Part shown: positions 39,720 to 54,626 of the stretch, piece after piece
How positions within the stretch are numbered: position 1 is the stretch's first letter
Layout: each line of letters opens with the position of its first letter
NCBI GenBank assembly: GCA_902512415.1
Contig: CABXJB010000002.1
Coordinates: 1-54,626 of the forward strand
DNA length: 54,626 nucleotides
Direction: 5' to 3'
DNA from: an uncultured Alphaproteobacteria bacterium
Lineage (GTDB): Bacteria > Pseudomonadota > Alphaproteobacteria > HIMB59 > GCA-002718135
Made by a program: the position numbers and the translations under genes
Notes under the pieces: generated by a model
The model's input: only the letters and a program-made list of their open reading frames with translations
Told to the model about the DNA's origin: nothing
Database searches by the model: none

Positions 39720-39965
39720 ATGAAAGATTCAGTTGAAAATGATGAAATAATTCTTGATACTAGCGGTACAGAATGTCCTATCCCTGTGCTGAAAGCAAGA
39801 AAACTTGCTCAAGAACTAAAAAATGGAAATATAATAAGGGTGATAGCTACCGATCCTCTAGCCACTGCTGATTTCGAGCACTATTGTAGTCAATCAGGTT
39901 TTGAATTGCTAGAAAGTTATAATGAAGGTGATAAAATTATAATAAGATATAAATTTAAAAATTAA
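39720..39965 (+). CDS. TusA/SirA-family sulfur carrier protein
   Basis: 81 aa from the ATG at 39720 (the track ORF uses TTG at 39705). LDTSGTECPIPVLKARK carries the conserved CPxP active-site cysteine motif of TusA-like proteins. Confidence 0.8.
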   Translation: MKDSVENDEIILDTSGTECPIPVLKARKLAQELKNGNIIRVIATDPLATADFEHYCSQSGFELLESYNEGDKIIIRYKFKN

Positions 39966-41179
39966 AAAAATAATTTATCAAAATCATAGTAATCAAATAC
40001 ATCTCCTTTTCTAATAGCACTAATATTTTCAGGAATTTCAACTATCCCATCTGAATATGATATAGATGATATCATCCCCGATCCTTGTTTAGGATGTTTA
40101 GTAATAACATATTCATTATTAATTAATTTTTTTGATACTCTTAACCATTCAAGTCTTTTAGTTTTTTTTATCATAGAAAAATTTGTTTTAATTTTCTCTG
40201 GTTTCATATTTATTATTTTTGAGCCAATTAATTTAAAAATTAGTGGCTTAACAACAAATGCAAATAATAATTGAACTGAAACAGGATTGCCTGGCAAACA
40301 AACTATATAAGTTTTTTTAATTTTCCCAATTGCTATTGGCCTTCCTGGTTTAATTGCAGCTCGCCAAAAAAAAATTTCTCCATTGTTTTTTAGGGTATTA
40401 ATTAAATGGTCTTCATCTCCAACTGATGCACCACCAGTTGTAATTATAATATTATATTTAGATACTTCCGATAATAATTTTTTCTTTATTCTATTAATGT
40501 TGTCTGGAAGATTGCCCAAAAATTTCTTTGTAATATAATTTTTATTTAAAAGAGAATTTAGTAAATAATAATTAGAATTATTTATTTTGGAATTTTTTAG
40601 TTTTATTGTTGGCTTTACTAATTCATTACCGCTAGTGTAAAACCCAATTCTAATTTTTGAGTAAACTTTGACCTTACTATAACCTATTGCAGCAATTAAG
40701 TTTAAATTTTTATTGTCTATTTTTGTTCCCCTTTTCAAAACAAGGCTTCCTTTTGAGATATCTTCACCCTTATGTCTACAATTCTCACCGTAAGAAGGAA
40801 CTTTAATTAAAGAGAGTTTGCTATCAATAATTTTTGTATTCTCCTGCATTACAACTGTATTTGAGTTTGATGGTATTTTTGCGCCAGTAAAAATTCTCAT
40901 CACTTCCCCAGCTTTCATTTTGTGTGAAGCATTATCTCCTGCCGCAACTCTTTTTTTATTAATTTTTTTTTGATTTTTATTTAAATCTTTTTTTAATAAA
41001 GCATAACCATCAACTGCTGAATTTTTAAAAGGCGGCAAGTCAATTTTTGAATAAATATTTTCTGCTAAAATTTTATCTTCTGTATTTAGAAGGCTGATTG
41101 TCTCAGTTTTGGATATTACACTTGAGCGCCTTTTAATAAAATGTATAATTTGTTTTAAAAGAAGTGGTTTTTTGTTCAT
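39962..41179 (-). CDS. moeA: molybdopterin molybdotransferase MoeA
   Basis: 405 aa with SAVDGYAL, TGGASVGDEDH and LPGNPVS motifs. Confidence 0.85.
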   Translation of the reverse strand: MNKKPLLLKQIIHFIKRRSSVISKTETISLLNTEDKILAENIYSKIDLPPFKNSAVDGYALLKKDLNKNQKKINKKRVAAGDNASHKMKAGEVMRIFTGAKIPSNSNTVVMQENTKIIDSKLSLIKVPSYGENCRHKGEDISKGSLVLKRGTKIDNKNLNLIAAIGYSKVKVYSKIRIGFYTSGNELVKPTIKLKNSKINNSNYYLLNSLLNKNYITKKFLGNLPDNINRIKKKLLSEVSKYNIIITTGGASVGDEDHLINTLKNNGEIFFWRAAIKPGRPIAIGKIKKTYIVCLPGNPVSVQLLFAFVVKPLIFKLIGSKIINMKPEKIKTNFSMIKKTKRLEWLRVSKKLINNEYVITKHPKQGSGMISSISYSDGIVEIPENISAIRKGDVFDYYDFDKLFF

Positions 41180-41661
41180 AAAATTTTTTTTATTATAAAT
41201 TCAACCAAGCCTTTATTATCATTTTTTTTAAATACAGGAATACTTGTATTGTTTAATTCATCAGAAACAATTGCAACAACATTATTAATTACATTATTTG
41301 TATTTTGTAAACCTTCTCCTATTATTTCAATTTTGGGGTGATTTTCTTTCTTAAAACCTTCTACAACAATAATATCAACATCTTCGAACTCTTTAATCAG
41401 CTCTTCTAAATTCTTTTCCTTCTTATTATTATTCTCAATTATTTTTGCCCAACGTTTAGAAGAGCTAATGATAACCTGGTTAGAACCAGCCTCTCGGTGC
41501 TTAAAACTATCTGTACCATGTTGATCAATATCAAAGTCATGATGTGCATGTTTAATTGATCCAACTTTGTAACCCTTCTTGACTAATAATTTAATTATTA
41601 AACTAGCATAATGTGTTTTTCCAACGCTCTTCCAACCAGTGATACCAATTATTTTACTCAT
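41176..41661 (-). CDS. mobB: molybdopterin-guanine dinucleotide biosynthesis adapter MobB
   Basis: 161 aa with Walker A GITGWKSVGKT and downstream IKHAHHDFDID and EGFK motifs. Confidence 0.85.
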   Translation of the reverse strand: MSKIIGITGWKSVGKTHYASLIIKLLVKKGYKVGSIKHAHHDFDIDQHGTDSFKHREAGSNQVIISSSKRWAKIIENNNKKEKNLEELIKEFEDVDIIVVEGFKKENHPKIEIIGEGLQNTNNVINNVVAIVSDELNNTSIPVFKKNDNKGLVEFIIKKIL

Positions 41662-42347
41662 ATTTTTCTCTTATTAAAAATGTAGACTAATGAATATATT
41701 ATAATTGTTAGAATAATTAATACTATACCTAGAGCCATTGCATATTCAAGATTACCCATTCTTGTCTCAAGGGAGATTGCCGTAGTCATCACTCTTGTAA
41801 AATGATCGATGTTACCACCCACAATCATTACAGCTCCAACTTCAGATATAGCTCTGCCAAAAGCTGAGAGGAGTGCAGTGATAACAAGAAAATAACTATG
41901 TTTGATAATAATAAATGCTACTCCAAAAAAAGACATATTAATTGATCTTAATTGATCCTTGTATTCTCTCCAATTTTGAGCAAAGATTTCGTGAGATATA
42001 GAAGTAACAATTGGAAAAATAATTATTACCTGAGCTATTATCATTACCGTAGGCGTGTATAGCAATTGCAAAACACCCAAAGGTCCTCCAGAAGCAAAGA
42101 TGAAATAGACTATTAATCCAACTACAACAGGAGGAATACCCATAAGAGAATTAAGGACTATTAAAAAAAAACTTTTAAAGGGAAATTTTTTAAGAGCTAC
42201 ATAATAACCAATTAATAACCCAAAAATTGAAGCGACTATTAGCGCAGAGATACTAACATACAATGATAAAATAATAATTTCCCACAAATCGCTATCAAAT
42301 GAAATGATTAAAAATAAAGATTTAGTAAAAATTTCTATAATGTTCAT
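41658..42347 (-). CDS. TupB-like (tungstate/molybdate-type) ABC transporter permease, orphan
   Basis: 229 aa with about five TM segments. LLYTPTVMIIAQ and FGRAISEVGAVMIVGGNIDHFTRVMTTAISLETRMG match the pattern I recall for TupB-type permeases. No SBP or ATPase gene is adjacent. Confidence 0.75.
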   Translation of the reverse strand: MNIIEIFTKSLFLIISFDSDLWEIIILSLYVSISALIVASIFGLLIGYYVALKKFPFKSFFLIVLNSLMGIPPVVVGLIVYFIFASGGPLGVLQLLYTPTVMIIAQVIIIFPIVTSISHEIFAQNWREYKDQLRSINMSFFGVAFIIIKHSYFLVITALLSAFGRAISEVGAVMIVGGNIDHFTRVMTTAISLETRMGNLEYAMALGIVLIILTIIIYSLVYIFNKRKI

Positions 42348-42371
42348 ATAAAGATTATATCAGAATACATT

Positions 42372-43190
42372 ATGAGTAAAAAAATTAAATATTTAGTTGC
42401 ACCCAATCCACAAGATAAAAATTTGACTAAGGAAATAAATGGCTTTGATGAAAATTTTAAAAAAACAAAAATCAAGGTTATCATAGAGAAAGATCTTACA
42501 ATTTATTTAAATAATCAAGAAATTGTCACACTAATGACAGTTGGTGATCATCCAGAGTATCTTGCCATTGGTTATTTATTGAATCAAAACATGTTAAAAA
42601 AAACTGATAAAGTTAAAAAGATTGAGCACGACACTGAACTCAAAGTTGTAATTGTAAGAACATCACGAAAAACTAACTATGAAGAAAAATTAAAAAGAAA
42701 AATTACTACAAGCGGATGCGCGGTTGGAACAGTTTTTGGAGATGTATATGATGAAATCTTAAAAAGTAAGATTAAATCTAAAAAAAAAATCAAACATTCT
42801 TGGATTTATGAAATCTCAAAAAAAATTAATTTAACTCCGAGTCTATATCTTGAGGCTGGCGCAATTCATGGTTGTGCAATAATTGAAAACAATAATCCAA
42901 TTATTTATATGGAAGATGTTGGCCGTCATAATGCTGTAGATAAAATTGCAGGATATATGTTTTTAAAAAAAATTGATGGCTATAATAAAATTTTTTATAC
43001 GACTGGAAGATTAACTAGTGAGATGGTAATCAAGACTGTAAAAATGATGGTACCTATTTTAATATCGCGTTCAGGCTTTACATCATGGGGTGTTGAATTA
43101 GCAAAGAAAACAAATCTTACCTTAATTGGGAGAGCAAAAGGTAAAAAATACTTAGTCCTCTCAGGTGAAAACAGAATTGATTATAAATAA
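42372..43190 (+). CDS. fdhD: formate dehydrogenase accessory sulfurtransferase FdhD
   Basis: 272 aa with TSGCAVGT, AGAIHGCA and EDVGRHNAVDKIAGY motifs. Confidence 0.9.
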   Translation: MSKKIKYLVAPNPQDKNLTKEINGFDENFKKTKIKVIIEKDLTIYLNNQEIVTLMTVGDHPEYLAIGYLLNQNMLKKTDKVKKIEHDTELKVVIVRTSRKTNYEEKLKRKITTSGCAVGTVFGDVYDEILKSKIKSKKKIKHSWIYEISKKINLTPSLYLEAGAIHGCAIIENNNPIIYMEDVGRHNAVDKIAGYMFLKKIDGYNKIFYTTGRLTSEMVIKTVKMMVPILISRSGFTSWGVELAKKTNLTLIGRAKGKKYLVLSGENRIDYK

Positions 43191-43800
43191 ATCAAAAACA
43201 ATAATAGTTATTCTTGCTGGCGGTCAGTCACGTCGATTTGGAGGAGGTTATAAAACTTTACATAAGTTCAATAACATATCTTTACTTGATAGAATTATAC
43301 ATAATTTAAAAAAATTGAATATGGATATTATTTTAAATGTAAACTCTAATGAGAATCAATTTTTAAAAACAGGTTTGAACTTAATAAAAGATGATGTCAA
43401 AAATTTTCAAGGGCCACTTGCAGGAATATGCGCATCAATGAAATGGGTATTAAAAAATAAAAAAGATATTGAGTGGATTTTTACATCACCTTCTGATACT
43501 CCCTTCTTAAATGCTGATTTAGTGAATAAATTTTTAATCACTAAATACCTAAATAATACAAAAATAGTTTTGGCTAAAGCTCCTAATAAGACACATCCTG
43601 TAATTGGATTTTGGCATATTTCACTAATAAAAAGCTTGGAAGATTTTTTTAAGGAAGATAGTAGAAAAATTATGAATTGGGTGGCGAGACAAAATTATGA
43701 ATTACTCAATTTTGAAAATAAAAATTATTTTTTCAATATCAATTCAAAGTCAGATCTGGCTGAAGCGATTAAGATCGAGAAGTCTCTAAAAACAATATAA
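43165..43800 (+). CDS. mobA: molybdenum cofactor guanylyltransferase MobA
   Basis: 211 aa with IVILAGGQSRRFGG and GPLAGI. The GTG start overlaps fdhD by 26 nt; the in-frame TTG at 43177 is an alternative start. Confidence 0.85.
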   Translation: MKTELIINKSKTIIVILAGGQSRRFGGGYKTLHKFNNISLLDRIIHNLKKLNMDIILNVNSNENQFLKTGLNLIKDDVKNFQGPLAGICASMKWVLKNKKDIEWIFTSPSDTPFLNADLVNKFLITKYLNNTKIVLAKAPNKTHPVIGFWHISLIKSLEDFFKEDSRKIMNWVARQNYELLNFENKNYFFNINSKSDLAEAIKIEKSLKTI

Positions 43801-43848
43801 TTTACTGGATAATCATAATAATAAGAATATAAATTAATACTAGAAATC

Positions 43849-44763
43849 ATGTCAATTTACCTTCCTATCGCTGAAATTAACATCAATATATTTCTAATTG
43901 TGTTTATTGGCATGTTAGTCGGCGCGTTATCCGGCTTATTTGGAGTTGGAGGAGGTTTTTTAATGACCCCTCTTTTGATTTTTTTGGGAATACCTCCTGT
44001 TGTTGCAGTAGGTTCTGAAGCTCCACATGTTTTAGCTTCAAGTGTATCCGGAGTAATAGCTCACTGGCGTAAAAAAAATGTTGATTTTAAGATAGGTTTT
44101 TTTTTATTATCTGGCGGTGTGGTTGGATCAACTATAGGCGTATATTTATTTAAATTACTTAAAACCTATGGTCAGATAGATATTGTTATTCAATTTTTAT
44201 TTTTAATTTTCCTTGGCTTTATTGGAATATCAATGGCATTTGAAAGTGCTAAAACAACTATCAAAAATTACCGAACTACTTCGGCAATAAGAACTAAACT
44301 ACATCAACATTCTTGGATTCACGGACTTCCTTTTAAGCTTCGGTTTCATCGTTCAAAATTGTATATTTCTGCAATTCCTCCAATTTTAATTGGTTTTTTT
44401 GTTGGAGTATTATCAGCAATGATGGGAGTTGGTGGTGGCTTTATAATGATACCTGCAATGGTTTACTTATTAGGAATGTCTACAAACGTTGTTGTAGGGA
44501 CTTCATTGTTTCAAATTATTTTTGTGACAGCAAATTCAACTTTTTTTCAATCGTATTTGAATCAAACTGTTGATATTGTTCTATCTGCACTTATGATACT
44601 TGGTGGAGTTATTGGAGCACAAATAGGAGTGAGAATTGGCTCTAAACTTAAAGCAGAATATTTAAGAGGAATTTTGGCTATTTTAGTTTTACTTGTTTGT
44701 GCAAAAATTTTAACTGACTTAATTCTTACACCTTTTGATGTATTTACTACTTCAATATCTTAA
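43849..44763 (+). CDS. TauE/SafE (DUF81) family anion-exporter-like membrane protein
   Basis: 304 aa in two homologous halves. Each half carries a G-rich helix (GLFGVGGGFLMTPLL and GVGGGFIMIPAMV), separated by a basic loop. Confidence 0.8.
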   Translation: MSIYLPIAEININIFLIVFIGMLVGALSGLFGVGGGFLMTPLLIFLGIPPVVAVGSEAPHVLASSVSGVIAHWRKKNVDFKIGFFLLSGGVVGSTIGVYLFKLLKTYGQIDIVIQFLFLIFLGFIGISMAFESAKTTIKNYRTTSAIRTKLHQHSWIHGLPFKLRFHRSKLYISAIPPILIGFFVGVLSAMMGVGGGFIMIPAMVYLLGMSTNVVVGTSLFQIIFVTANSTFFQSYLNQTVDIVLSALMILGGVIGAQIGVRIGSKLKAEYLRGILAILVLLVCAKILTDLILTPFDVFTTSIS

Positions 44764-46791: not shown

Positions 46792-47058
46792 AGACTTTGA
46801 GAAGAAATATCACAGCCGTCTATAATTATATTCGTATATTTTTTTTTAGCTCTCCTGCAAACATTCCAGTACCACATGCTAGATCCAAATTTGAATTAAT
46901 TTTTACTTTTATTTTTGATAAAATATTAATAGCCTTTTTAGGGGCCTTATAATTTCAGTTTTTTAAAGTTTGATCATAATTTAAAGCCAATCATCATAAT
47001 ATTTTTCAGTAACAGATTGATTGCCAATACCATCTAATAAAGACTTTATTTTAGTCAT
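46790..47058 (-). pseudogene. decayed class I SAM-dependent methyltransferase (two frame breaks, one TGG-to-TGA, 3' end deleted)
   Basis: The minus-strand ATG at 47058 overlaps the upstream gene's stop as ATGACTAA and reads MTKIKSLLDGIGNQSVTEKYYDDW, followed by the first frame break. The next frame reads ALNYDQTLKN-TGA-NYKAPKKAINILSKIKVKINSNLDLACGTGMFAGELKK (SAM motif I). The second frame break is in an A9 run (46839-46847), then YTNIIIDGCDISSQSLQIAK. Beyond that the DNA is antisense pyrE. Confidence 0.7.
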
Positions 47059-47857
47059 TAAAGATAGCTGGTATTTTATTTCGAAAACTTACAATTTCCA
47101 TTAAATCAATTTTTGTATTCAATATTTTAGGAGTTGATTTAGCTTTGGATACTATTTCCCCCCAAGGGTTTATTAACATTGAGTGTCCATAAGTTTTTCG
47201 ATTAGTATGATGTGTTCCACACATATTAGTTGCTACTATAAACAAACTATTTTCAATTGCTCTAGATCTAAGCATAACTTCCCAATGAGCTTTTCCAGAA
47301 GGTACTGTGAAGGCCGCGGGCATTAAAATTATCTCAGCCCCTTTTTTGGCAAGTTTTCTAAATAAATTTGGGAATCTTAAATCATAGCAAATAGTAAAAC
47401 CTATTTTTACTTTATCTAAATTTAATAAGGAAATATTTTTTCCAGCCTTAAAAGTATCAGACTCCCTATGAGTTTCTTTTTTACTAATATTAACATCAAA
47501 CATGTGTATTTTATCATATCTTTTAACAATCATACCTTTTGTATTAATAAAGTATGATCTGTTAACTAATTTCTTTTTATTTTTTTCCTTTAAAAGAAGG
47601 GAGCCAATATTAATATTTACTTTATTTTCTTTGGCATATATTTTTGCCATACTTATTATTGGACAATTTAATTCATCAGTGGTTTTTTGTTTAAGATAAT
47701 TAGTATCATTGGTTATTATATTAGAACATTCTGGTGTGCATATTAAATTGGGTATAAATTTTTTAGTTTTCTCAAAATATTTTTTTAATAATTTTGCATT
47801 TTCAAAAGGAGTTGATTTAGCCTCAAATTGAATTTGAGAAATTTTTAATTCTTTCAT
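47051..47857 (-). CDS. carbon-nitrogen hydrolase (nitrilase superfamily, Nit/omega-amidase-like)
   Basis: 268 aa with catalytic Glu-Lys-Cys contexts TPECS, YDKIHMFD and FTICYDLRFP. Confidence 0.8.
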   Translation of the reverse strand: MKELKISQIQFEAKSTPFENAKLLKKYFEKTKKFIPNLICTPECSNIITNDTNYLKQKTTDELNCPIISMAKIYAKENKVNINIGSLLLKEKNKKKLVNRSYFINTKGMIVKRYDKIHMFDVNISKKETHRESDTFKAGKNISLLNLDKVKIGFTICYDLRFPNLFRKLAKKGAEIILMPAAFTVPSGKAHWEVMLRSRAIENSLFIVATNMCGTHHTNRKTYGHSMLINPWGEIVSKAKSTPKILNTKIDLMEIVSFRNKIPAIFND

Positions 47858-47864
47858 TAATAAC

Positions 47865-48848
47865 TTACCAGCGTGAATGTATGTCGTCTTTTAATTTAGT
47901 ATTATATAAATTTTCAATTTTTTTCATTAAACCATTAATATTTGGTAATGATGAGGCTGAAATATTTTGCAGGGCTTGATCAGAATTTTTGGCTCCTGGA
48001 ATAATTACACTTACTTCGTCGTGCATTAAAATCCATTTTAGCGCAATTTGAGATAAAGAAAAACCTTCTGGAATAATTGATTTTAATTCTTCAACAACAT
48101 CAAGAGCTTTATTAAAATTTACACCTGAAAATGTTTCACCAACATCAAAAGCGCCTCCTTTAATATTATAATTTCTGTGATCAGTAGCAGGAAAAGTAGA
48201 GCTGGAATTCATCTTTCCAGTTAAAAGTCCACTTGCTAGTGGCACTCTAACAATAATAGCTATATTTTTTTCTTTAGCTATTTTAAAAAATTCTTCAGCT
48301 GGCTTTAATCTAAGCATATTAAAGATAATCTGCACACTTTTTGTATGAGTTCTATTAATACATTCTATTGCTTCTTCTACCGTTTCAACACTAAATCCAT
48401 AATGTTGTATTTTGCCTTTTGTGACCAGATGATCTAACATCTGATAAGTTAAATCATGGGAATATACTTCTGTTGGGGGGCAGTGCATTTGTAAAAGATC
48501 AATAGTCTCTAATTTAAGATTCTTTAATGATCGATCAACAAATGACTCCATTAAATCTTTATCATAATATCCTTCAGCTTCATGAGGATTAATTCTACGT
48601 CCTGCTTTAGTAGCAACATATATTCTTTCTGAAGTTGAATTTATAAATTCTCCAACAAATTTTTCACTTCTTCCATCTCCATAAACATCAGCAGTATCAA
48701 AAAAATTGACACCATTTTCAAAAGAAGTTTTCAAAACATTTTTTGCATTCTCTTCAGAAACTTCACCCCAATCAGCACCCATAGCCCAACACCCAAGACT
48801 TATCTCACTAATATCCCAACCAATTTTTCCAAATTTTCTTTTTTTCAT
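47865..48848 (-). CDS. aldo/keto reductase
   Basis: 327 aa with LGCWAMG, FFDTADVYGDGRSE, LQMHCP and IPGAKN motifs of the AKR fold. Confidence 0.85.
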   Translation of the reverse strand: MKKRKFGKIGWDISEISLGCWAMGADWGEVSEENAKNVLKTSFENGVNFFDTADVYGDGRSEKFVGEFINSTSERIYVATKAGRRINPHEAEGYYDKDLMESFVDRSLKNLKLETIDLLQMHCPPTEVYSHDLTYQMLDHLVTKGKIQHYGFSVETVEEAIECINRTHTKSVQIIFNMLRLKPAEEFFKIAKEKNIAIIVRVPLASGLLTGKMNSSSTFPATDHRNYNIKGGAFDVGETFSGVNFNKALDVVEELKSIIPEGFSLSQIALKWILMHDEVSVIIPGAKNSDQALQNISASSLPNINGLMKKIENLYNTKLKDDIHSRW

Positions 48849-51010
48849 TAATTTATAGATATTTCATTTGTGCACATTGTACCGTCCTCAGCAACTATAC
48901 CGGCTCCACCAGTTTTAAAAGTATTATTACTATCTTCTACTTCAATTATTAATTTTCCATCTACATATCCTTTAATTTTATTATCAATAACTTCAAGTTT
49001 AAGATCATAATCAGTAAAGAATTCAAAATTAAAATCAATTTCCTTTAATGTTTCTAATTCATAATACATTTTTGCTATCCGTAACTTATTTTCTGAGGTA
49101 ACTTCGAGAGCATAGTATCTTTTAAGGCCTTGAACTCTTGCTATTATGCCACCAGATTTAACTAAGTGAAAATTAAGCTTTGATGAAACTGAATAGTTTT
49201 TCCATTTATCATTACCTGTAAAAACAACACCTCTACCAATATTTTGAGTTATTCTAAATGGCTCTTTCCATCTAGACTCCCATTTATCTATTGCTTGAAC
49301 AAAGTTGTTCTTCCACATATCTCCATAGAATTGAGTATCTTGAGAAACCCCTCTTTTAGGATTTGCAATATGGTCAGGCTTTTTAAAAGTTATTTTTGGC
49401 TCACCAAAAATATCAAGGTAATTTATTATTAACTTTCCGGATACTTTCTCTGAAGAAGAGATAGATATACCAATTTGTGCAATAGGGTTAGAGCCTGTAT
49501 CAGGAACATCCCATTCAATATCTTTACTTTCATTATTATGAAAAAAGAATTCCTCTGAATTTAATTTGATTAATTTATCATTTTCTCCCCAATATTTAAC
49601 AAATAATTTTGCAATTATATCTTTATTGGAATTTGAAATTAATTGAGTTTTTATTTTTTGACCTGAATAAACTATAGGGCAAGATATAAAGTCATAATGA
49701 AAAAATCTCTCCCTTGCCATACCCTCAAGCTTAGTTAAATCCTCAGGAAAGAAAGTGTCTACGTAGCACTCACTAGATAAACCATTAGATAAATCATTAA
49801 ATTTTATTTCAAGAGCACGTTCTCCAATCTCCGATTTATATTCAATATTTGATATAAATGTTGAAGGATTATTGTCATCCAAATCATTTACTTTCCATGA
49901 TTGAGTCGACTCAGGAAGATTAAAATGGTATCTAGCACCATTCTTCACTATTACATCCCCTTTTCCCTCTAAGTTTCTTGCTGTGTTAATAATCTTATAT
50001 GACTCTGTAAGCGCATCAGTTATTGTTTCACCACCAATTGCTGTTGGGCAATAAATGGTATCATTGATGGGTGATAAATAATCTGGACCTGTTTTAAGAC
50101 CTGCTAACCCATTTTTGATCCCTAAAATGCAACCTACATTACCTGAATTACAATCAGTATCCCAACCAGCTGTATTAACAATCATCAAAGTTTTTTGAAA
50201 ATCATCATCTCCAAATAATAATGACATAATGATAAGTGCATGATTTGGAACCATATGACAATTACCTAAGTATTTATCGTACCCATATTTACCTGCAATT
50301 TTTTCTCTTGCTTGTTCCCAATCAATATTTCCAGCACTCCAATCTTGAATATCAGAAATTAATTTAAAAATTGTTGAGTCTTTTGGAATAAATCTTTTTG
50401 ATTCGTTAATAATCTTACTTATGTCTTTTTCAACAAAAGCTAAGGCTTCCATAGCTGCAATCATTTGTGCTCCGTATACTGCCTCACCATCATGACTTAC
50501 ACTTCCTGCTTCTTTAGCTAGTTTAACAGCCTGCTCAGGATTGCCAGGTGATACTAAAGCCCATCCATCTATAAATATCTGAGCGCCAATTTGCTCTGCT
50601 ACTGTTTTTCCATTCATAGCGATTGAACCACTCTCCGGTGCGTGAATACCTTGTTTTAAATTTTGATATGCAGTGTCTTCAGTGGAATTTCCTTTACCAC
50701 CCCACCACAGTATTGTTCTATCTTCTATCAGATTGTTCAACCAAGTTTGACCAATCTGTTTTGCTGTAATATTTTTATCATAATTAAAGTCACGAAGTGC
50801 TCTTAAAAAAGTAAAGGTTCCAGTTATATCATCATCCGTAACACAAATAGGTTGCTTAAGTTTGTCATTAACATAATAATTTATTGGACCTAACTCCTCC
50901 ATTATTCTCTCATAAGTCCAACCTTCAAAAGGTCTTCCTAAATAAACACCAATAATTTTTCCTAAAACGCCAGCATATACTTGTTCTTCATATTGTTTAT
51001 CTAATTTCAT
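48848..51010 (-). CDS. ADP-ribosylglycohydrolase-fold enzyme fused to ~375 aa of beta-sandwich (ConA/LamG-like) domains
   Basis: 720 aa. Residues ~1-345 carry both ARH metal-site motifs (VTDDDITG at 57-64, GWDTDCNSGNVGCILG at 282-297). Residues ~565-720 look like a ConA-like jelly roll (WKNYSVSSKLNF...GGIIARV...YYALEV...KLEVIDNKIKGYVDGKLII...GGAGIVAEDG...). Confidence 0.7.
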   Translation of the reverse strand: MKLDKQYEEQVYAGVLGKIIGVYLGRPFEGWTYERIMEELGPINYYVNDKLKQPICVTDDDITGTFTFLRALRDFNYDKNITAKQIGQTWLNNLIEDRTILWWGGKGNSTEDTAYQNLKQGIHAPESGSIAMNGKTVAEQIGAQIFIDGWALVSPGNPEQAVKLAKEAGSVSHDGEAVYGAQMIAAMEALAFVEKDISKIINESKRFIPKDSTIFKLISDIQDWSAGNIDWEQAREKIAGKYGYDKYLGNCHMVPNHALIIMSLLFGDDDFQKTLMIVNTAGWDTDCNSGNVGCILGIKNGLAGLKTGPDYLSPINDTIYCPTAIGGETITDALTESYKIINTARNLEGKGDVIVKNGARYHFNLPESTQSWKVNDLDDNNPSTFISNIEYKSEIGERALEIKFNDLSNGLSSECYVDTFFPEDLTKLEGMARERFFHYDFISCPIVYSGQKIKTQLISNSNKDIIAKLFVKYWGENDKLIKLNSEEFFFHNNESKDIEWDVPDTGSNPIAQIGISISSSEKVSGKLIINYLDIFGEPKITFKKPDHIANPKRGVSQDTQFYGDMWKNNFVQAIDKWESRWKEPFRITQNIGRGVVFTGNDKWKNYSVSSKLNFHLVKSGGIIARVQGLKRYYALEVTSENKLRIAKMYYELETLKEIDFNFEFFTDYDLKLEVIDNKIKGYVDGKLIIEVEDSNNTFKTGGAGIVAEDGTMCTNEISIN

Positions 51011-51016
51011 ATTAAC

Positions 51017-51862
51017 CTACCCTTTCGAAGCTCCACTTGTTAGTCCAGCAATAAATCTTCTTTGAAAAAACATAAATAAGATAACAATTGGTGCCATCAT
51101 CATTACTGCGGAAGCATTTACTAATCCCCAGTTATTTTCAAATCTACTTTGAAAAGCAAATAGAATTGTTGCTATTGGTTTTTTTGAATCATCATGAACA
51201 AAAGTTAAAGCAAATAAAAATTCATTCCACACAGCCAAACCTACTACTAAACCTGTTGTTAAAAATACTGGCCATGAGATTGGTAATGCTATCCTATAAA
51301 AAAGTTGTAACGTATTTGCTCCATCGATTTTTGCTGCATCAAATAATTCATCTGGTAATTGAATCATGTATGAGCGAATTAAAAAAGTTGCAAAAGGAGC
51401 ATTAAGTCCTGCGTAAATAATTATTAATCCGAGATGAGTATTCATTAAACCGAATTCTTTCCACATTAGGAAAAGTGGTAAAATGAACATTTGTGCAGGA
51501 ATTGATACTCCGACCAACAAATAGACTAGAAAGGCATTTGATCCACGAGGATAAAGTTTTGCTAAGCTAAATCCTGCTAATCCTGAAACGGTCAAATTTA
51601 AAATTAGAGTACCAATTACTAATTTTGAAGAATTTAAAAAAATTTGCGCATATTCTCCCATTATCCAAGCATCTACAAAATTTGCCAATCTTATAGTAAT
51701 TGGAAAACCAAATGGGTTTATTCCAAATTCTTCTTGAGGCTTAATTGAATTAAAAAAAAGCAACATGATTGGCAAAATACAAGTTAAAGCTAAAATTGTT
51801 AAAATAGTGTAATTTGATACTAGTTCTCTTTTTCTATATTTAGCTACAATCATATTTCCCAC
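51017..51862 (-). CDS. carbohydrate-type (CUT1) ABC transporter permease, MalG-like
   Basis: 281 aa with six TM segments and EAA loop DELFDAAKIDGANTLQLFYRIALP. Confidence 0.85.
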   Translation of the reverse strand: MGNMIVAKYRKRELVSNYTILTILALTCILPIMLLFFNSIKPQEEFGINPFGFPITIRLANFVDAWIMGEYAQIFLNSSKLVIGTLILNLTVSGLAGFSLAKLYPRGSNAFLVYLLVGVSIPAQMFILPLFLMWKEFGLMNTHLGLIIIYAGLNAPFATFLIRSYMIQLPDELFDAAKIDGANTLQLFYRIALPISWPVFLTTGLVVGLAVWNEFLFALTFVHDDSKKPIATILFAFQSRFENNWGLVNASAVMMMAPIVILFMFFQRRFIAGLTSGASKG

Positions 51863-52728
51863 CCAAGTTTTCTAAGTACTCCAAAAATACTGACAATAAA
51901 AATTGTATATATGAACATTAATGTTCCAATTGCTGATGAATATCCAACATTAAACCTATCAAAAGCTTGCGAATATAAATTAGTTGCTAAAACTTCTGAA
52001 GAGTAAGCAGGACCACCTTGAGTTAAAATCCAAACATAATCAAATGTTGGTATAGACCAGATAATAATGATCATTATAGAAAAAATAAAAATTGGCCTTA
52101 TTAGTGGTAAAGTTACAAATCTAAATTTTTGAAACTTTGTTGCTCCTTCAATATCTGCAGCTTCATACAAACTATTATCAACTTGATACATGCCAGTTAT
52201 ATAAATTACCACTAGGAATCCCCAGAAATGCCATCCATCAACAAAAGCAACTGCGTAAAGTGAGGTTTCTTTCATAGTAAAAGGTGAAACTGCAGGTATC
52301 AAATCTATTCCCTTACTATTGAGCCATGCCGGTAATCCATAAAGAGGATGAAAAATGTATTTCCAAATTTGACAACTAATTATACTTGCTAACATGTAAG
52401 GAAAGAAAAAACATAATCGAAAAAGCATTTGTCCCTTCGTAATACCTGTAAGCAAATAAGCACAAGTTAATGCCAATGCAATTGGAACGGTTAAAAATAA
52501 ACAAGTCCAAATAATATTATGCCAAACAGCTTTTTTAAAATAACGATCATCAAATAATTCGTAAAAATTTTCAAATCCGACATAATTGATTTTTCCAAAA
52601 CCATTCCAATCAGTCAGGCATAAAGCAAGACTTAATAGAGATGGTAATGCTACCACCATAAAGTGAACAGCTAAAACAGGTAAGATAAAATACCATGCTA
52701 TAGAATTTTTACTAAAAAATATGCTCAT
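51850..52728 (-). CDS. carbohydrate-type (CUT1) ABC transporter permease, MalF/UgpA-like
   Basis: 292 aa with EAA loop NSLYEAADIEGATKFQKFRFVTLP. Overlaps the second permease gene by 13 nt. Confidence 0.85.
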   Translation of the reverse strand: MSIFFSKNSIAWYFILPVLAVHFMVVALPSLLSLALCLTDWNGFGKINYVGFENFYELFDDRYFKKAVWHNIIWTCLFLTVPIALALTCAYLLTGITKGQMLFRLCFFFPYMLASIISCQIWKYIFHPLYGLPAWLNSKGIDLIPAVSPFTMKETSLYAVAFVDGWHFWGFLVVIYITGMYQVDNSLYEAADIEGATKFQKFRFVTLPLIRPIFIFSIMIIIIWSIPTFDYVWILTQGGPAYSSEVLATNLYSQAFDRFNVGYSSAIGTLMFIYTIFIVSIFGVLRKLGWEI

Positions 52729-52742
52729 TCTTGGAAATATAT

Positions 52743-52766
52743 ATAGCGAGGCATTAGCCTCGCTAT
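52743..52766 (-). terminator. intercistronic 10-bp perfect stem-loop between the SBP and permease genes (attenuator or mRNA-stabilising element)
   Basis: atagcgaggc-atta-gcctcgctat: perfect 10-bp stem with a 4-nt loop, lying 13 nt after the SBP stop and 14 nt before the permease ATG. It is followed by an only modestly U-rich tail on the minus strand. Confidence 0.55.
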
Positions 52767-52778
52767 TATTAAGTTAGT

Positions 52779-54101
52779 TTATCTTGCGCCAACAGGAAGA
52801 AGCTCTCCTTTTTTACGAGCTTTATCCCACATTTTTTGGTGATCGTACATGTAGTCTTCTACAGATATATCACCAGCCCAAACTACTTCCATATCTTTCC
52901 AAATATGTACGCCTGGATCAGCTGGCCAAAAAGTCCATGTGGTGTATCCGTAATCTCCTTTTCCAGTAGCTTCTGCAAAATCAACTAGATACCTTTTAAC
53001 CTGAGGGCTCACATCATTTCTAATATCATCTGCTGAAAAATACAATGGAACAACAAACTCTCCAAAATTAAAATCTGCAGCCATATCAAGTACAATTTTT
53101 TTGTTACTGAATATAAAGTCAAAAACTTTAGCAGCAGCATCTGGATCTCCTGAAGATGCATTTATTGACATTGTAGTTCCTAAAGCAAGCAAATATGCTG
53201 GATCAGCTCCACCATCTCTTAAAACAGGGAAAGGAGCCCAATCCCATTCATCTGAAGAGTCTGCAAAACCTGCAGCTGTAGCTCCAAATGTCCAGGTACC
53301 AATTGTCATCATTGCAGCCCCTCTTGAAGCAAACATTGCATGAAAATCATCCCAACCAAGAGCGTAATAATTTTCAAGGCTACCTGACCAATATCCATCA
53401 TCAACCATATGTTTTCTAAGAAGTTCTACAGCTCCTACAAATTCAGGATCTGTCCAATCTTTTTCACCAATAAGAGCTTTATAAACATTATCAGGTCCTG
53501 CATAACTATTTAGATACATACCTGCTAAATGTTCGTGTGTTGGCTGCCATCCTGTTGAACCATATGCAAATACATTCATACCTGCAGCTTTGATTTTACT
53601 AGCAACATCTTCATACTCACTTAAAGTTGTAGGAACTTTCCAACCATTTTCTTCAAACAATGTTTTGTTATACAACATAATCATTGTTTCAAATGTTTTA
53701 GGTGCTGAGTAAAACTCTCCATTAAATACTCCAGCTTGGTAAGACCAAGGCAAAAGCTTGTCTTCCCATCCATATTGACTTGAATATCCTTGCATAGACT
53801 TAAGCAGTCCAGCTTCTTGATATTCTTTTACGTAAGACGGACCTGGAGTTTCAACTATATCTGGTCCTTCACCTGAAAGCATTGCAGTTCTTAGAATATC
53901 ATTTAATCCTTCCTTGAACTCCATCACTAATTCAATATCATTTTGTGAAGCATTAAATGCATCAACGAGCTTTGCCTCAAACACTGGATCTCTATTTGCA
54001 TTTGTTTCTGCCCACCAAGTTACGGTTGTCTTTGCAAATACGCTAAAAGAATTAAGTGAAAAGATAGAAGCAACAAATACTATAAATAATTTTTTAATCA
54101 T
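52779..54101 (-). CDS. ABC transporter extracellular solute-binding protein, family 1 (sugar/glycoside type)
   Basis: 440 aa with signal peptide MIKKLFIVFVASIFSLNSFSVFA. The aromatic-rich mature protein resembles CUT1 binding proteins. GGAGGT lies upstream of the ATG. Confidence 0.85.
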   Translation of the reverse strand: MIKKLFIVFVASIFSLNSFSVFAKTTVTWWAETNANRDPVFEAKLVDAFNASQNDIELVMEFKEGLNDILRTAMLSGEGPDIVETPGPSYVKEYQEAGLLKSMQGYSSQYGWEDKLLPWSYQAGVFNGEFYSAPKTFETMIMLYNKTLFEENGWKVPTTLSEYEDVASKIKAAGMNVFAYGSTGWQPTHEHLAGMYLNSYAGPDNVYKALIGEKDWTDPEFVGAVELLRKHMVDDGYWSGSLENYYALGWDDFHAMFASRGAAMMTIGTWTFGATAAGFADSSDEWDWAPFPVLRDGGADPAYLLALGTTMSINASSGDPDAAAKVFDFIFSNKKIVLDMAADFNFGEFVVPLYFSADDIRNDVSPQVKRYLVDFAEATGKGDYGYTTWTFWPADPGVHIWKDMEVVWAGDISVEDYMYDHQKMWDKARKKGELLPVGAR

Positions 54102-54169: not shown

Positions 54170-54187
54170 AACTTATTATAATAAGTT
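54170..54187. promoter_or_regulatory. 18-bp perfect palindrome, candidate HutC/GntR-type operator upstream of the transporter operon
   Basis: AACTTATTATAATAAGTT is perfectly self-complementary. It sits at the regulator's stop codon, ~70 nt upstream of the SBP ATG, and a TATAAT hexamer lies on the minus strand at 54143-54148. Confidence 0.35.
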
Positions 54188-54626
54188 ATTGATAATGATT
54201 TTCAACTTTTAATGGTTTAACGGTTATTTCCTGATCAATTAGGACCAGTTTACTTGATATATCATACATATACCAAATGTTTGAAATTGCTGGATGACCA
54301 TGAGTTGTTGTGAATAAATCTGCGTCATTGTTACTCAATGATATCGCAGAAACCTCTTGTTCGCTTTTACTAATTTTAATTTTAAATTTATTGATGAGAA
54401 CATTCAATAAATTTTTATCTTTAAAAATGTTTTTATTTACGTTCTTTCCAATAATTTCAATTGGAATGTATGCTCTGCTAATCAAATATATTTCATTATT
54501 TTTTATTCGTCTGAGTCTTTTTATATAATAGAGCGATCTAGAACTTTTAAATTTTTTACTAAAATTATTTTTAACCACTTGTACATCTAAAAGTTTATAA
54601 TCAGCATTCAATGTTACAGAAAAATC
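54186..54626 (-). CDS. GntR/HutC-family transcriptional regulator, C-terminal UTRA effector domain (N-terminus beyond the window)
   Basis: The reading frame is open to the right edge; the track's M at 54611 is a TTG inside the frame. The pattern ...RLRRIKNNEIYLISRAYIP... and the alternating beta/alpha layout fit a UTRA domain. Confidence 0.6.
   Translation of the reverse strand, partial: DFSVTLNADYKLLDVQVVKNNFSKKFKSSRSLYYIKRLRRIKNNEIYLISRAYIPIEIIGKNVNKNIFKDKNLLNVLINKFKIKISKSEQEVSAISLSNNDADLFTTTHGHPAISNIWYMYDISSKLVLIDQEITVKPLKVENHYQ

Follow-up and report, generated by a model that had tools for sequence, protein, structure and literature searches.

To our knowledge, every characterised enzyme of the ADP-ribosylglycohydrolase (ARH) fold (ARH1, ARH3, DraG) cleaves at C1 of a ribose, and one further solved member, MJ1187, is itself of unknown function. 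In E. coli, the yegTUV cluster combines a nucleoside-type transporter with the ARH-family protein YegU and the PfkB kinase YegV. The carbohydrate-binding module CBM66, which is of interest here for structural reasons, recognises terminal fructofuranose in its parent levanase (4azz, 4b1m). [quoted passage not shown] In Bacteroidetes, the ribose-utilisation (Rus) loci have been found to contain uncharacterised ADP-ribosylglycohydrolases alongside ribokinases (Glowacki et al., bioRxiv 10.1101/574913), and the systematic ligand mapping of SAR11 binding proteins, carried out in strain HTCC1062, holds SAR11_0769 as its only sugar binder (PMC11485210). The gene described in this work joins an ARH domain to two beta-sandwich modules and lies inside a sugar-import operon.

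Architecture and active site of the fusion protein

The window (the whole stretch of DNA that was analysed, 54,626 nucleotides) carries the fusion gene as an ORF at 48848..51010 with an ATG start, encoding 720 aa (Table 1); the ORF check agreed with the initial annotation on extent and length and placed the gene on the minus strand. In the AlphaFold2 model of the whole protein (pLDDT 87.1, pTM 0.90), the chain is helical to about residue 347 and nearly all beta from about 384 to 719, as had been claimed for the C-terminal half. The expected lack of a signal peptide was also seen, since the ARH domain begins at about residue 10 in every homologue.

Within the catalytic domain, residues 14-306 align with Pfam PF03747 (ADP_ribosyl_GH) over positions 2-285 of the 287 in the profile, at E=1.8e-53 and 182.5 bits (cutoff 26.2). 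Foldseek relates its all-alpha ARH fold to ARH3 (6g1q), MJ1187 (1t5j) and DraG (2woe/3g9d) with a target-normalised TM of 0.64-0.75, and also to the Listeria ART-ARH immunity protein 8za7. Both acidic metal-binding motifs reported earlier are kept, VTDDDITG at residues 57-64 and GWDTDCNSG at residues 282-290, and profile alignments of the fusion family to 1t5j, 8za7, 6g1p and 2woe place E29, T58-D59-D60-D61 and D284-T285-D286 on the catalytic Glu and the metal ligands of ARH3, DraG and MJ1187. Across 130 distinct homologues of full length, a set that takes in a subfamily at only 35% identity, conservation is 100% at E29, D60, D61, D284, T285, D286 and C287, and T58 and D59 are invariant as well. 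The [ST]-D-D and D-x-D-[ST] motifs and the catalytic Glu are present with one substitution, the invariant Cys287, which stands where canonical ARHs have a Thr/Ser ligand; Cys is a competent metal ligand. Val22 occupies the Asp position of the usual GDxLG, and a large invariant Trp-rich insertion is found at residues ~95-150. A single-sequence phmmer search recovered none of the solved ADP-ribose-binding ARHs. Among solved ARHs, only MJ1187 scores strongly against the family profile, and the matches of ARH3 and DraG are limited to the C-terminal metal motif (E=3e-4 to 2.5e-3).

The last ~155 aa superpose on the CBM66 structures 4azz and 4b1m (Foldseek TM 0.80-0.84, rmsd 1.7-2.0 A, 157-159 columns), and CBM66 was also found by sequence when the family profile was searched against PDB sequences (hmmsearch, E=5.8e-5), so the ConA/LamG-like jelly roll proposed for this segment is borne out. 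The likeness to DUF1080 that had been suggested holds at the level of the ConA/LamG-like fold, but the Pfam scan of the full protein gave no match to PF06439 at E<=0.01; the sole weak C-terminal match was to PF21708 (GH59 lectin domain; E=0.0087 and 16.5 bits, below the cutoff of 27), for which several homologues carry a precomputed match. The middle module, which had no Pfam match in the same scan, was modelled alone (AF2, residues 346-570, pLDDT 89.3), and its best Foldseek match was 2c26 (E=2.6e-7). Its matches were jelly-roll CBMs of families 30/44, 22, 4, 61, 11 and 16 (E=2.6e-7 to 1e-4), with a TM of only 0.4-0.63 and 6-15% identity, and no homologues of it were found outside the ARH fusion. 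By its model, the middle module appears to be a jelly roll of the general CBM4/CBM22/CBM30 class, without family assignment; in the structural search on the predicted structure, the C-terminal half resembles two CBM-like jelly-roll modules. Because the pTM is 0.90 for three domains, their arrangement is predicted to be fixed, which suggests that the modules are held rigidly against the catalytic domain and do not behave as free CBMs; that they may bind carbohydrate is a weaker suggestion, drawn from their fold.

The two halves of the protein are conserved to different degrees. In the 130-homologue alignment, columns conserved at >=95% number 116 of 345 in the catalytic domain versus 19 of 220 and 14 of 155 in the two modules. 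Between SAR11 and other phyla, identity is 29-35% in the C-terminal half and 57-68% in the catalytic half, and among tandem SAR11 paralogues the values are 40-62% and 63-80%. Judged by these alignments, the C-terminal half is the faster-evolving one. The initial annotation had read a stronger N-terminal constraint from a catalytic half described as much richer in G+C. The constraint is supported by alignment conservation, but G+C content does not show it: the catalytic part is indeed higher (0.342 versus 0.303 and 0.292), but the gap is modest, GC3 is near-equal across the parts (0.19, 0.21 and 0.17), and the difference sits in codon positions 1-2.

The importer operon and its recurrence

Table 1. 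Features of the fusion operon in the window (all on the minus strand)
Feature	Coordinates	Strand	Evidence
GntR/HutC-type regulator, C-terminal part (UTRA effector domain), cut by window end	54186..54626	-	Pfam UTRA E=4.3e-10
Periplasmic solute-binding protein, sugar-type (CUT1-like) ABC importer	52779..54101	-	SBP_bac_1 E=2.3e-26
G+C-rich hairpin, 10-bp stem, between binding-protein and first permease genes	52743..52766	-	terminator-like scan
ABC permease 1 (MalF/UgpA-like)	51850..52728	-	BPD_transp_1; nearest NCBIfam models UgpA, GlcT
ABC permease 2 (MalG/UgpE-like)	51017..51862	-	BPD_transp_1 E=2.5e-18
Fusion residues 1-345, ARH-fold catalytic domain	49976..51010	-	PF03747, Foldseek, profile alignments
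Fusion residues 346-565, first beta-sandwich module (jelly roll resembling CBM4/22/30)	49316..49975	-	AF2, Foldseek
Fusion residues 566-720 and stop codon, second beta-sandwich module, CBM66-like (ConA/LamG-type)	48848..49315	-	Foldseek, profile
Aldo-keto reductase	47865..48848	-	Pfam Aldo_ket_red E=4.5e-63
Nitrilase-superfamily C-N hydrolase (Nit / deaminated-glutathione-amidase-like), last gene of operon	47051..47857	-	CN_hydrolase E=2.1e-48

The genes of the operon overlap or sit 6-7 nt apart: the genes of permeases 1 and 2 share 13 nt, permease 2 stops 6 nt short of the fusion gene, and the start of the aldo-keto reductase overlaps the fusion stop by 1 nt. The transcription unit brings together a binding protein with a Sec signal peptide (MIKKLFIVFVASIFSLNSFSVFA/KT), two BPD_transp_1 permeases and the fusion, as in a MalEFG/UgpBAE-like importer operon, and this packing supports the earlier proposal of a cytoplasmic enzyme acting on an imported substrate. 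No ATPase gene is present in the operon in the window, and no ribokinase was found in the window or in the fetched SAR11 loci. Orthologues of the GntR/UTRA regulator (75-77% identity) hold the same position in loci L001 and L002. The nearest solved relatives of the binding protein are 4g68, 3vxb, 8xba and 7ehp, whose ligands are xylo-oligosaccharides, xylobiose or chitobiose, at low similarity. Its identification as the glucose binder SAR11_0769 was rejected, the match to 8hqq reaching only E=1.8e-8. The hairpin could act as an attenuator within the operon or stabilise the mRNA, and for the C-N hydrolase the nearest NCBIfam models score under their cutoffs.

The survey of the phylogenetic distribution of this architecture returned 940 clusters at 50% identity, with carriers in SAR11, Chloroflexota, Deinococcota, Bacillota, Armatimonadota, Rhizobiales and Rhodobacterales. 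The possibility that the architecture was common and already characterised therefore held in its first part; no characterisation of the family was found in the literature, and all sources label the protein merely "ADP-ribosylglycohydrolase family protein". Linkage to an importer recurs in at least five phyla (in SAR11, Chloroflexota, Deinococcota, Bacillota, Actinomycetota and Alphaproteobacteria). The order binding protein-permease-permease-fusion is seen in 28 SAR11 loci, in ~20 loci of Chloroflexota, Trueperaceae, Bacillota and Rubrobacteraceae (transporter orthologues at 34-57% identity), and in 20-25 of 32 Rhizobiales/Rhodobacterales loci, where the ATPase gene, of UgpC/MalK type in Rhizobiales, lies right 3' of the fusion. 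LacI adjoins the fusion in 15 non-SAR11 loci and is the usual repressor of the importer-linked ones. The aldo-keto reductase (orthologues at 70-85% identity in 24 of 30 SAR11 loci) is essentially a SAR11-specific neighbour, as no orthologue was found in the loci outside SAR11, where only two 23-30% paralogues lie several kb off; the C-N hydrolase is likewise a neighbour in 18 SAR11 loci and 0 others.

A true ribokinase accompanies the operon in only 5 of the ~95 non-SAR11 loci; these five come from four phyla, and in at least three of them the ribokinase belongs to the same operon. Three of these ribokinases (L061, in the order LacI-fusion-RbsK, L032 and L080) score above the TIGR02152 curated cutoff at 328-351 bits. 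Annotated ribokinases lie inside the operon on Deinococcus aetherius pDAETH-1 (ARH-ribokinase-fusion) and on an A. tumefaciens plasmid (ARH-fusion-UgpC-ribokinase), and in L032 another PfkB kinase, of unassigned specificity, follows a second ARH gene. Extra stand-alone ARH paralogues share operons with the fusion, and some SAR11 genomes carry up to four tandem fusion paralogues. A GH51 alpha-L-arabinofuranosidase adjoins the fusion in L062 and L075, and in L084 the fusion lies among GH4, GFO/IDH/MocA oxidoreductases and a rhamnosidase. In none of >120 loci was a gene for an ADP-ribosyltransferase, a nitrogenase or a toxin found near the fusion. A blastn search of 5,426 E. coli genomes with an enterobacterial fusion gene gave no match, at a DNA level that would miss distant homologues.

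Proposed function and alternatives

On balance, we think it probable that the fusion is a cytoplasmic, metal-dependent ARH-fold glycosidase that splits ribose off an imported riboside and takes its specificity from the modules. The initial annotation had pointed to an enzyme outside the GH folds that cleaves glycosides or ribosides, and the importer linkage, the ribokinase linkage and the invariant active site support this; ribose is most likely the product, for which the Rus loci offer a precedent. In the proposed pathway, the binding protein would capture, in the periplasm, a small compound that contains ribose, either a riboside or a ribosylated oligosaccharide, the two permeases would import it, with the SAR11 ATPase encoded elsewhere, and a repressor, GntR/UTRA in SAR11 and LacI elsewhere, would control the operon. 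The canonical two-metal site (E29; T58/D59-D60-D61; D284-T285-D286-C287) would then hydrolyse the bond at C1 of the ribofuranosyl unit, while the packed beta-sandwich modules would most likely bind the leaving-group part (aglycone or sugar) and so set specificity, and would not serve to anchor the enzyme to a polymer. The freed D-ribose would enter the pentose-phosphate pathway through ribokinase, and the fusion would supply the catabolic step in an operon dedicated to uptake.

Several observations speak against a riboside, and most of them would suit a hydrolase of another imported small carbohydrate, in which the ARH two-metal site is repurposed for an arabino-, fructo- or galactofuranosyl unit or a cis-diol pyranoside; we regard this as rather unlikely. 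Ribokinase is missing from most loci, including all those of SAR11, GH51, GH4 and the other sugar enzymes named above adjoin some copies, the nearest solved relatives of the binding protein take pyranose oligosaccharides (xylo- and chito-oligosaccharides), although at low similarity, and the last module is closest to CBM66, a module that recognises terminal fructofuranose in its levanase. The invariant Cys at the Thr/Ser ligand could moreover mean a different metal or chemistry, and the roles of the aldo-keto reductase and C-N hydrolase added in SAR11 operons are unexplained by the riboside reading. Nevertheless, the characterised ARH-fold enzymes that we know of all cut at ribose C1, the metal-ligand set for the ribose 2',3'-diol is fully kept, and the sole sugar kinase that recurs in the operons across phyla is a bona fide ribokinase.

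If the substrate is a riboside, it could be derived from nucleotides or cofactors (ADP-ribose derivatives, O-acetyl-ADP-ribose, ribosyl-adenosine from poly(ADP-ribose), nicotinamide riboside or alpha-ribazole), so that the range would be near that of classical ARHs. This would fit the ARH fold with its intact active site, the ribokinase linkage and the presence of ARHs and nucleoside hydrolases in the Rus loci for ribose sources (bioRxiv 10.1101/574913), but it seems improbable, because the importer is of the oligosaccharide/polyol (MalFG/UgpAE-like) type with SBP_bac_1 and not a nucleoside/nucleotide system, the regulators are of the LacI or GntR sugar type, and the catalytic domain carries the Trp-rich insertion and is very distant in sequence from solved ADP-ribose-binding ARHs. 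Genomic context argues against a protein-ADP-ribose substrate. A classical regulatory de-ADP-ribosylase, DraG/ARH1-like on a modified protein or Tri1-like on a toxin target, with modules recognising the protein, would accord with PF03747 membership and with the structural similarity to DraG, ARH3 and 8za7; it is highly improbable, as what recurs beside the fusion is an ABC sugar importer, LacI and ribokinase, no transferase, nitrogenase or toxin gene lies nearby in any of the >120 loci, and tandem sets of as many as four paralogues in streamlined SAR11 genomes accord with diversifying substrates rather than with a regulatory role. Least credible of all is a non-catalytic protein, a pseudo-enzyme or ligand-binding sensor that kept the fold and lost hydrolase activity. 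Cys287 and Val22 might be taken to suggest it, but Cys can ligate metal, decaying pseudo-enzymes lack the conservation found here across phyla, and the check for substituted metal ligands found the acidic ones invariant in the 130 homologues with Cys287 as the sole change. Because the active-site residues are invariant, the fusion should not be a pseudo-enzyme.

The operon is a complete, compact uptake-and-cleavage unit whose enzyme family forms hundreds of diverged clusters in at least seven phyla. Because it is present in easily grown Rhizobium, Agrobacterium and Deinococcus strains, the substrate should be findable by standard ligand screens and genetics. If the fusion is a riboside hydrolase, the ARH superfamily would extend from signalling and repair into bulk carbon catabolism, a non-GH fold would join the glycosidase repertoire, and one constituent of the dissolved organic matter of sea and soil would be identified as containing ribose. 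More tentatively, we speculate that these ~720-aa proteins could be a large unrecognised class of ARH-fold glycoside hydrolases, outside all GH folds and in effect a new glycosidase family, that cleave ribose-containing small molecules common in seawater and soil, with the CBM-like domains as specificity modules and the invariant Cys tuning the metal site; streamlined SAR11 would then keep as many as four tandem paralogues of 2.2 kb each, together with a high-affinity importer of their own, because ribose compounds are common enough.

Comparison with known systems

The fusion shares with the ARH/DraG family (ARH1, ARH3, DraG, Tri1, MJ1187) the same all-helical fold, the catalytic Glu and the two acidic motifs in the same places, and presumably two-metal hydrolysis at ribose C1. 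It differs in its length (~720 aa with two beta-sandwich domains, against 300-360 aa), in the invariant Cys and the Trp-rich insertion, in a very low sequence similarity to solved ARHs, and in its context, a sugar-import operon as opposed to nitrogenase regulation, toxin immunity or PAR metabolism. The best whole-model Foldseek E-values were to galactocerebrosidase (GH59, GALC; 3zr5, 1.3e-8), in which a catalytic domain likewise precedes an integrated pair of beta-sandwich domains, but its catalytic domain is a TIM barrel and not an ARH helical fold, and the global TM-score is low (0.19-0.21). The CBM66 module of the B. subtilis levanase SacC (4azz, 4b1l, 4b1m) shares its jelly-roll fold with the last 155 residues (rmsd ~1.8 A) at only 17% identity, a likeness of fold and profile; it is linker-tethered on a secreted GH32, whereas the fusion module sits on a cytoplasmic ARH enzyme in a predicted rigid packing (pTM 0.90).

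In gene content, yegTUV resembles the fusion loci in clustering an ARH-family gene with a transporter and a PfkB sugar kinase, although YegU is single-domain and its transporter of MFS type, whereas the fusion is multi-domain and served by an ABC importer. The Rus loci are SusC/D-based PULs with a permease, in contrast to the ABC importer of the fusion loci, and their ARHs are not described as fusions (bioRxiv 10.1101/574913). The likeness, one of gene content, lies in a shared logic of regulator (often LacI), transporter, ribokinase(s) and variable ribose-liberating enzymes.

Domain architecture and active site

The fusion protein claimed from the sequence is encoded by a single ORF of 720 codons, which has an ATG start and lies on the minus strand, and both of the quoted acidic motifs were found in it, VTDDDITG (residues 57-64) and GWDTDCNSG (residues 282-290). 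The Pfam ADP-ribosylglycohydrolase (ARH) domain covers residues 14-306 (E=1.8e-53), while the sole C-terminal Pfam match was the GH59 lectin domain PF21708, which was weak and below cutoff, and no NCBIfam model matched the fusion. A single-sequence search of the PDB retrieved nothing relevant, so that family profiles were needed. The AlphaFold2 model, built from an alignment of 46 homologues, reached a pLDDT of 87.1 and a pTM of 0.90; it is helical up to about residue 347 and nearly all beta from about residue 384 to 719. When compared with the PDB using Foldseek, the catalytic part resembled ARH3, MJ1187, DraG and a Listeria ART-ARH immunity protein, at TM 0.64-0.75. The final ~155 residues superposed on the CBM66 module from B. 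subtilis levanase with a TM of 0.80-0.84 and an rmsd of 1.7-2.0 A, and the beta-sandwich pair resembled the beta-sandwich and lectin pair of galactocerebrosidase, tandem CBM22 and tandem galectins. CBM66 was also retrieved from sequence alone by a family profile (E=5.8e-5), and the middle module, modelled separately as residues 346-570 (pLDDT 89.3), gave moderate Foldseek TM-scores with jelly-roll CBMs 30/44, 22, 4, 61, 11 and 16. These models and matches bear out the two beta-sandwich modules proposed in the initial annotation, and its DUF1080 label holds as a fold-level likeness but not as an HMM match. The high pTM, together with the lack of linkers in the homologue alignment, suggests that the ARH domain and the two modules form one rigid body.

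In profile alignments to MJ1187, Lmo0067, ARH3 and DraG, E29 aligned with the catalytic Glu, T58/D59-D60-D61 with the [ST]-D-D motif and D284-T285-D286-C287 with the D-x-D-[ST] motif. We assessed conservation in full-length homologues encoded by the fetched loci, 130 distinct sequences among which one subfamily is only ~35% identical, and found E29, D60, D61, D284, T285, D286 and C287 in all of them, as well as H173, E176, H252, N256, N288 and N291. Regarding the possible substitution of metal ligands, the acidic ligands and the Glu are therefore invariant, and the sole departure from canonical ARHs is that the Thr/Ser ligand (the position of T317 in ARH3) is replaced by Cys287, again in 130/130 homologues. 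This replacement may bring a different metal preference; the homologues also show almost no variation at C294 and C251-H252. Residues ~95-150, which are rich in Trp, Gln and Asp, are nearly invariant across phyla and have the lowest confidence in the model (pLDDT 49-72), a combination that fits a mobile flap, which may close over the substrate.

Coordinates of the features discussed (window positions, or positions in fetched genomic loci, L, that carry homologues)
Feature	Position	Strand	Remarks
Fusion gene	48848..51010	-	
Cys287 codon	49151-49153 region		
Residues ~95-150	50561-50728		
Solute-binding protein (SBP) gene	52779..54101	-	
Permease genes	51850..52728; 51017..51862	-	
Hairpin	52743-52766	-	between SBP and first permease genes
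Aldo-keto reductase and Nit-like C-N hydrolase genes	47051-48848		
Molybdenum-cofactor cluster	39962-44763		
Second ARH protein, 589 aa	L032:10145-11914		orthologues in L034, L047
Conserved hypotheticals	L120:5622-6734; L039:6625-8001; L065:3067-4449; L066:705-2105		L120, Deinococcus aetherius
Four-copy arrays	L009:3592-12347; L006:8001-16756		also L007, L008, L011, L012, L021
LacI-fusion-SBP trio	L121, CP103578.1:341535-345994		Enterobacter hormaechei

Constraint, distribution and tandem copies

Stronger constraint on the N-terminal domain was confirmed by the proportion of columns that are at least 95% conserved in the 130 homologues, which was 116/345 in the catalytic domain, 19/220 in the middle module and 14/155 in the last module. 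Likewise, the catalytic half is 57-68% identical between SAR11 and other phyla, compared with 29-35% for the C-terminal half. The G+C content, which the initial annotation had taken as a sign of this constraint, proved weak evidence: it is 0.342 in the catalytic domain versus 0.303 and 0.292 in the two modules, the gap sits in codon positions 1-2, and we rejected it as a proxy because GC3 is about equal across the three domains. The host is a member of SAR11 (Pelagibacteraceae) with an overall G+C of 0.31, and the closest genomic locus shows 92% protein-level identity.

Full-length relatives saturated the searches (at least 7,672 and at least 7,888 significant among 8,000 scored candidates), and the C-terminal half as query gave 940 clusters at 50% identity. 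Matches of ~370-390 aa in this 50%-identity library, considered as stand-alone C-terminal modules, were gene fragments beginning in the last ARH helices; fragments aside, the two-module unit was seen there only fused to an ARH domain, and relatives outside the fusion were found only for the last, CBM66/DUF1080-like domain (P0333). Hosts include SAR11, Chloroflexota, Rubrobacteraceae, Armatimonadota, Bacillota, Trueperaceae and Nitrospirales, many cultured Rhizobiales and Rhodobacterales, Deinococcus aetherius and one Enterobacter hormaechei record. The architecture is thus common, but it is not already characterised as far as our full-text literature search could find, and every source names the homologues only 'ADP-ribosylglycohydrolase family protein'. 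In the Enterobacter record, the LacI-fusion-SBP trio lies between chiP and glnS, indicating that the family reaches Enterobacterales; the record is labelled a 517-kb plasmid yet carries the chromosomal housekeeping genes seqA, fur, glnS and nagBA, and blastn of its fusion gene against complete E. coli genomes gave no match.

Several SAR11 genomes carry four tandem fusion copies (721, 734, 720 and 719 aa) in arrays of ~8.7 kb between the permeases and the reductase, with SBP-permease-permease before the array and an aldo-keto reductase, an MFS transporter, a C-N hydrolase and a methyltransferase after it, whereas the window has one copy and no MFS gene. Pairwise identity among the tandem copies is 63-80% in the catalytic domain and only 40-62% in the C-terminal half. 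The retention of tandem copies with such diverged C-terminal halves in a streamlined genome suggests that there are several related substrates and that the beta-sandwich part probably accounts for most of the specificity.

Operon context and the probable reaction

The gene order in the window is GntR/UTRA regulator, SBP, permease, permease, fusion, aldo-keto reductase and C-N hydrolase, and the operon is tightly packed, with overlapping genes or gaps of 6-7 nt. A Sec signal peptide is present on the SBP, while a signal peptide is absent from every aligned fusion homologue, as the initial annotation had noted for this protein; its view of a cytoplasmic enzyme acting on an imported substrate is supported. 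The SBP matched the SAR11_0769 glucose binder (PDB 8hqq) at only E=1.8e-8, and this assignment was rejected. The order SBP-permease-permease-fusion recurs in 28 SAR11 loci, in ~20 from Chloroflexota, Trueperaceae, Bacillota and Rubrobacteraceae (orthologous transporter parts, 34-57% identity), and in 20-25 of 32 from Alphaproteobacteria, in which the gene right after the fusion encodes a UgpC/MalK-type ATPase. Outside SAR11 the regulator is usually LacI. Only in SAR11 is the fusion followed by the aldo-keto reductase and C-N hydrolase genes, neither of which has an orthologue in the remaining loci. The two enzymes might handle ribose instead of a ribokinase, act on the aglycone, or have no connection with the pathway. 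Between the SBP and first permease genes we also observed a hairpin with a G+C-rich stem of 10 bp and a T-rich tail, which could raise the SBP:permease expression ratio. Just upstream, at 39962-44763, lies a molybdenum-cofactor cluster (MoeA, MobB, ABC permease, FdhD and MobA-like transferase) followed by a TauE/SafE exporter, and the window's first ~33 kb are ORF-dense, with sizes and layout resembling ribosomal-protein and RNA-polymerase operons.

The best-supported reading makes the fusion a metal-dependent ARH-fold hydrolase that works in the cytoplasm and would free ribose from a small imported riboside; the two CBM-like domains, as integral parts of the enzyme, would set its specificity. 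The architecture, the intact active site, the place in the operon and the association with ribokinase were observed directly, and the ribose product, the role of the modules and all that concerns the substrate are inferred from them. The operon, the active site and the ribokinase association support the earlier proposal of a riboside- or glycoside-cleaving enzyme on a non-GH fold. A ribokinase above the curated TIGR02152 cutoff adjoins the fusion in three MAGs, one of Limnochordia, where LacI-fusion-RbsK form a three-gene unit, and two of Chloroflexota; annotated ribokinases share its operon on pDAETH-1 of Deinococcus aetherius (LacI-perm-perm-SBP-hyp-ARH-ribokinase-fusion) and on an A. tumefaciens plasmid (LacI-perm-perm-SBP-ARH-fusion-UgpC-ribokinase), and all five are homologous to one another. 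The chief alternative is an enzyme of this kind with a different sugar in its substrate, since CBM66, which the last module resembles, recognises fructofuranose, GH51 and GH4 genes adjoin the fusion in a few loci, the SBP is distantly similar to xylobiose and chitobiose binders, and most fusion loci are without a ribokinase. Linked transferases or target systems were absent from all of the >120 loci, which makes a classical protein de-ADP-ribosylase unlikely, and a pseudo-enzyme is unlikely because the catalytic and ligand residues are conserved; the fusion is not a decaying enzyme. Within the ARH family, the domain architecture and the ligand signature of the fusion are new and its role is probably catabolic, not regulatory, and it offers a direct, testable route to a substrate of SAR11 and many soil bacteria.

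Several fusion operons also contain extra single-domain ARH paralogues. Directly after one fusion gene lies a second ARH protein, which carries a GWDSDN motif and whose N-terminus (...LLSTTLLMIGCNG...) resembles that of a lipoprotein; judging from this N-terminus, it may be exported and pre-process a larger substrate outside the cell. Homology of its C-terminal extension to the fusion modules was rejected, as hhalign aligned only the ARH domain. Conserved hypotheticals (370 aa and ~460 aa) lie immediately upstream of ARH genes in fusion operons and may be further pathway enzymes; the ~460-aa protein had no match in Pfam. A similar logic, with a ribokinase beside an ARH gene, is seen in the ribose-utilisation loci of Bacteroidetes, where ribokinases adjoin uncharacterised ADP-ribosylglycohydrolases (bioRxiv 10.1101/574913).
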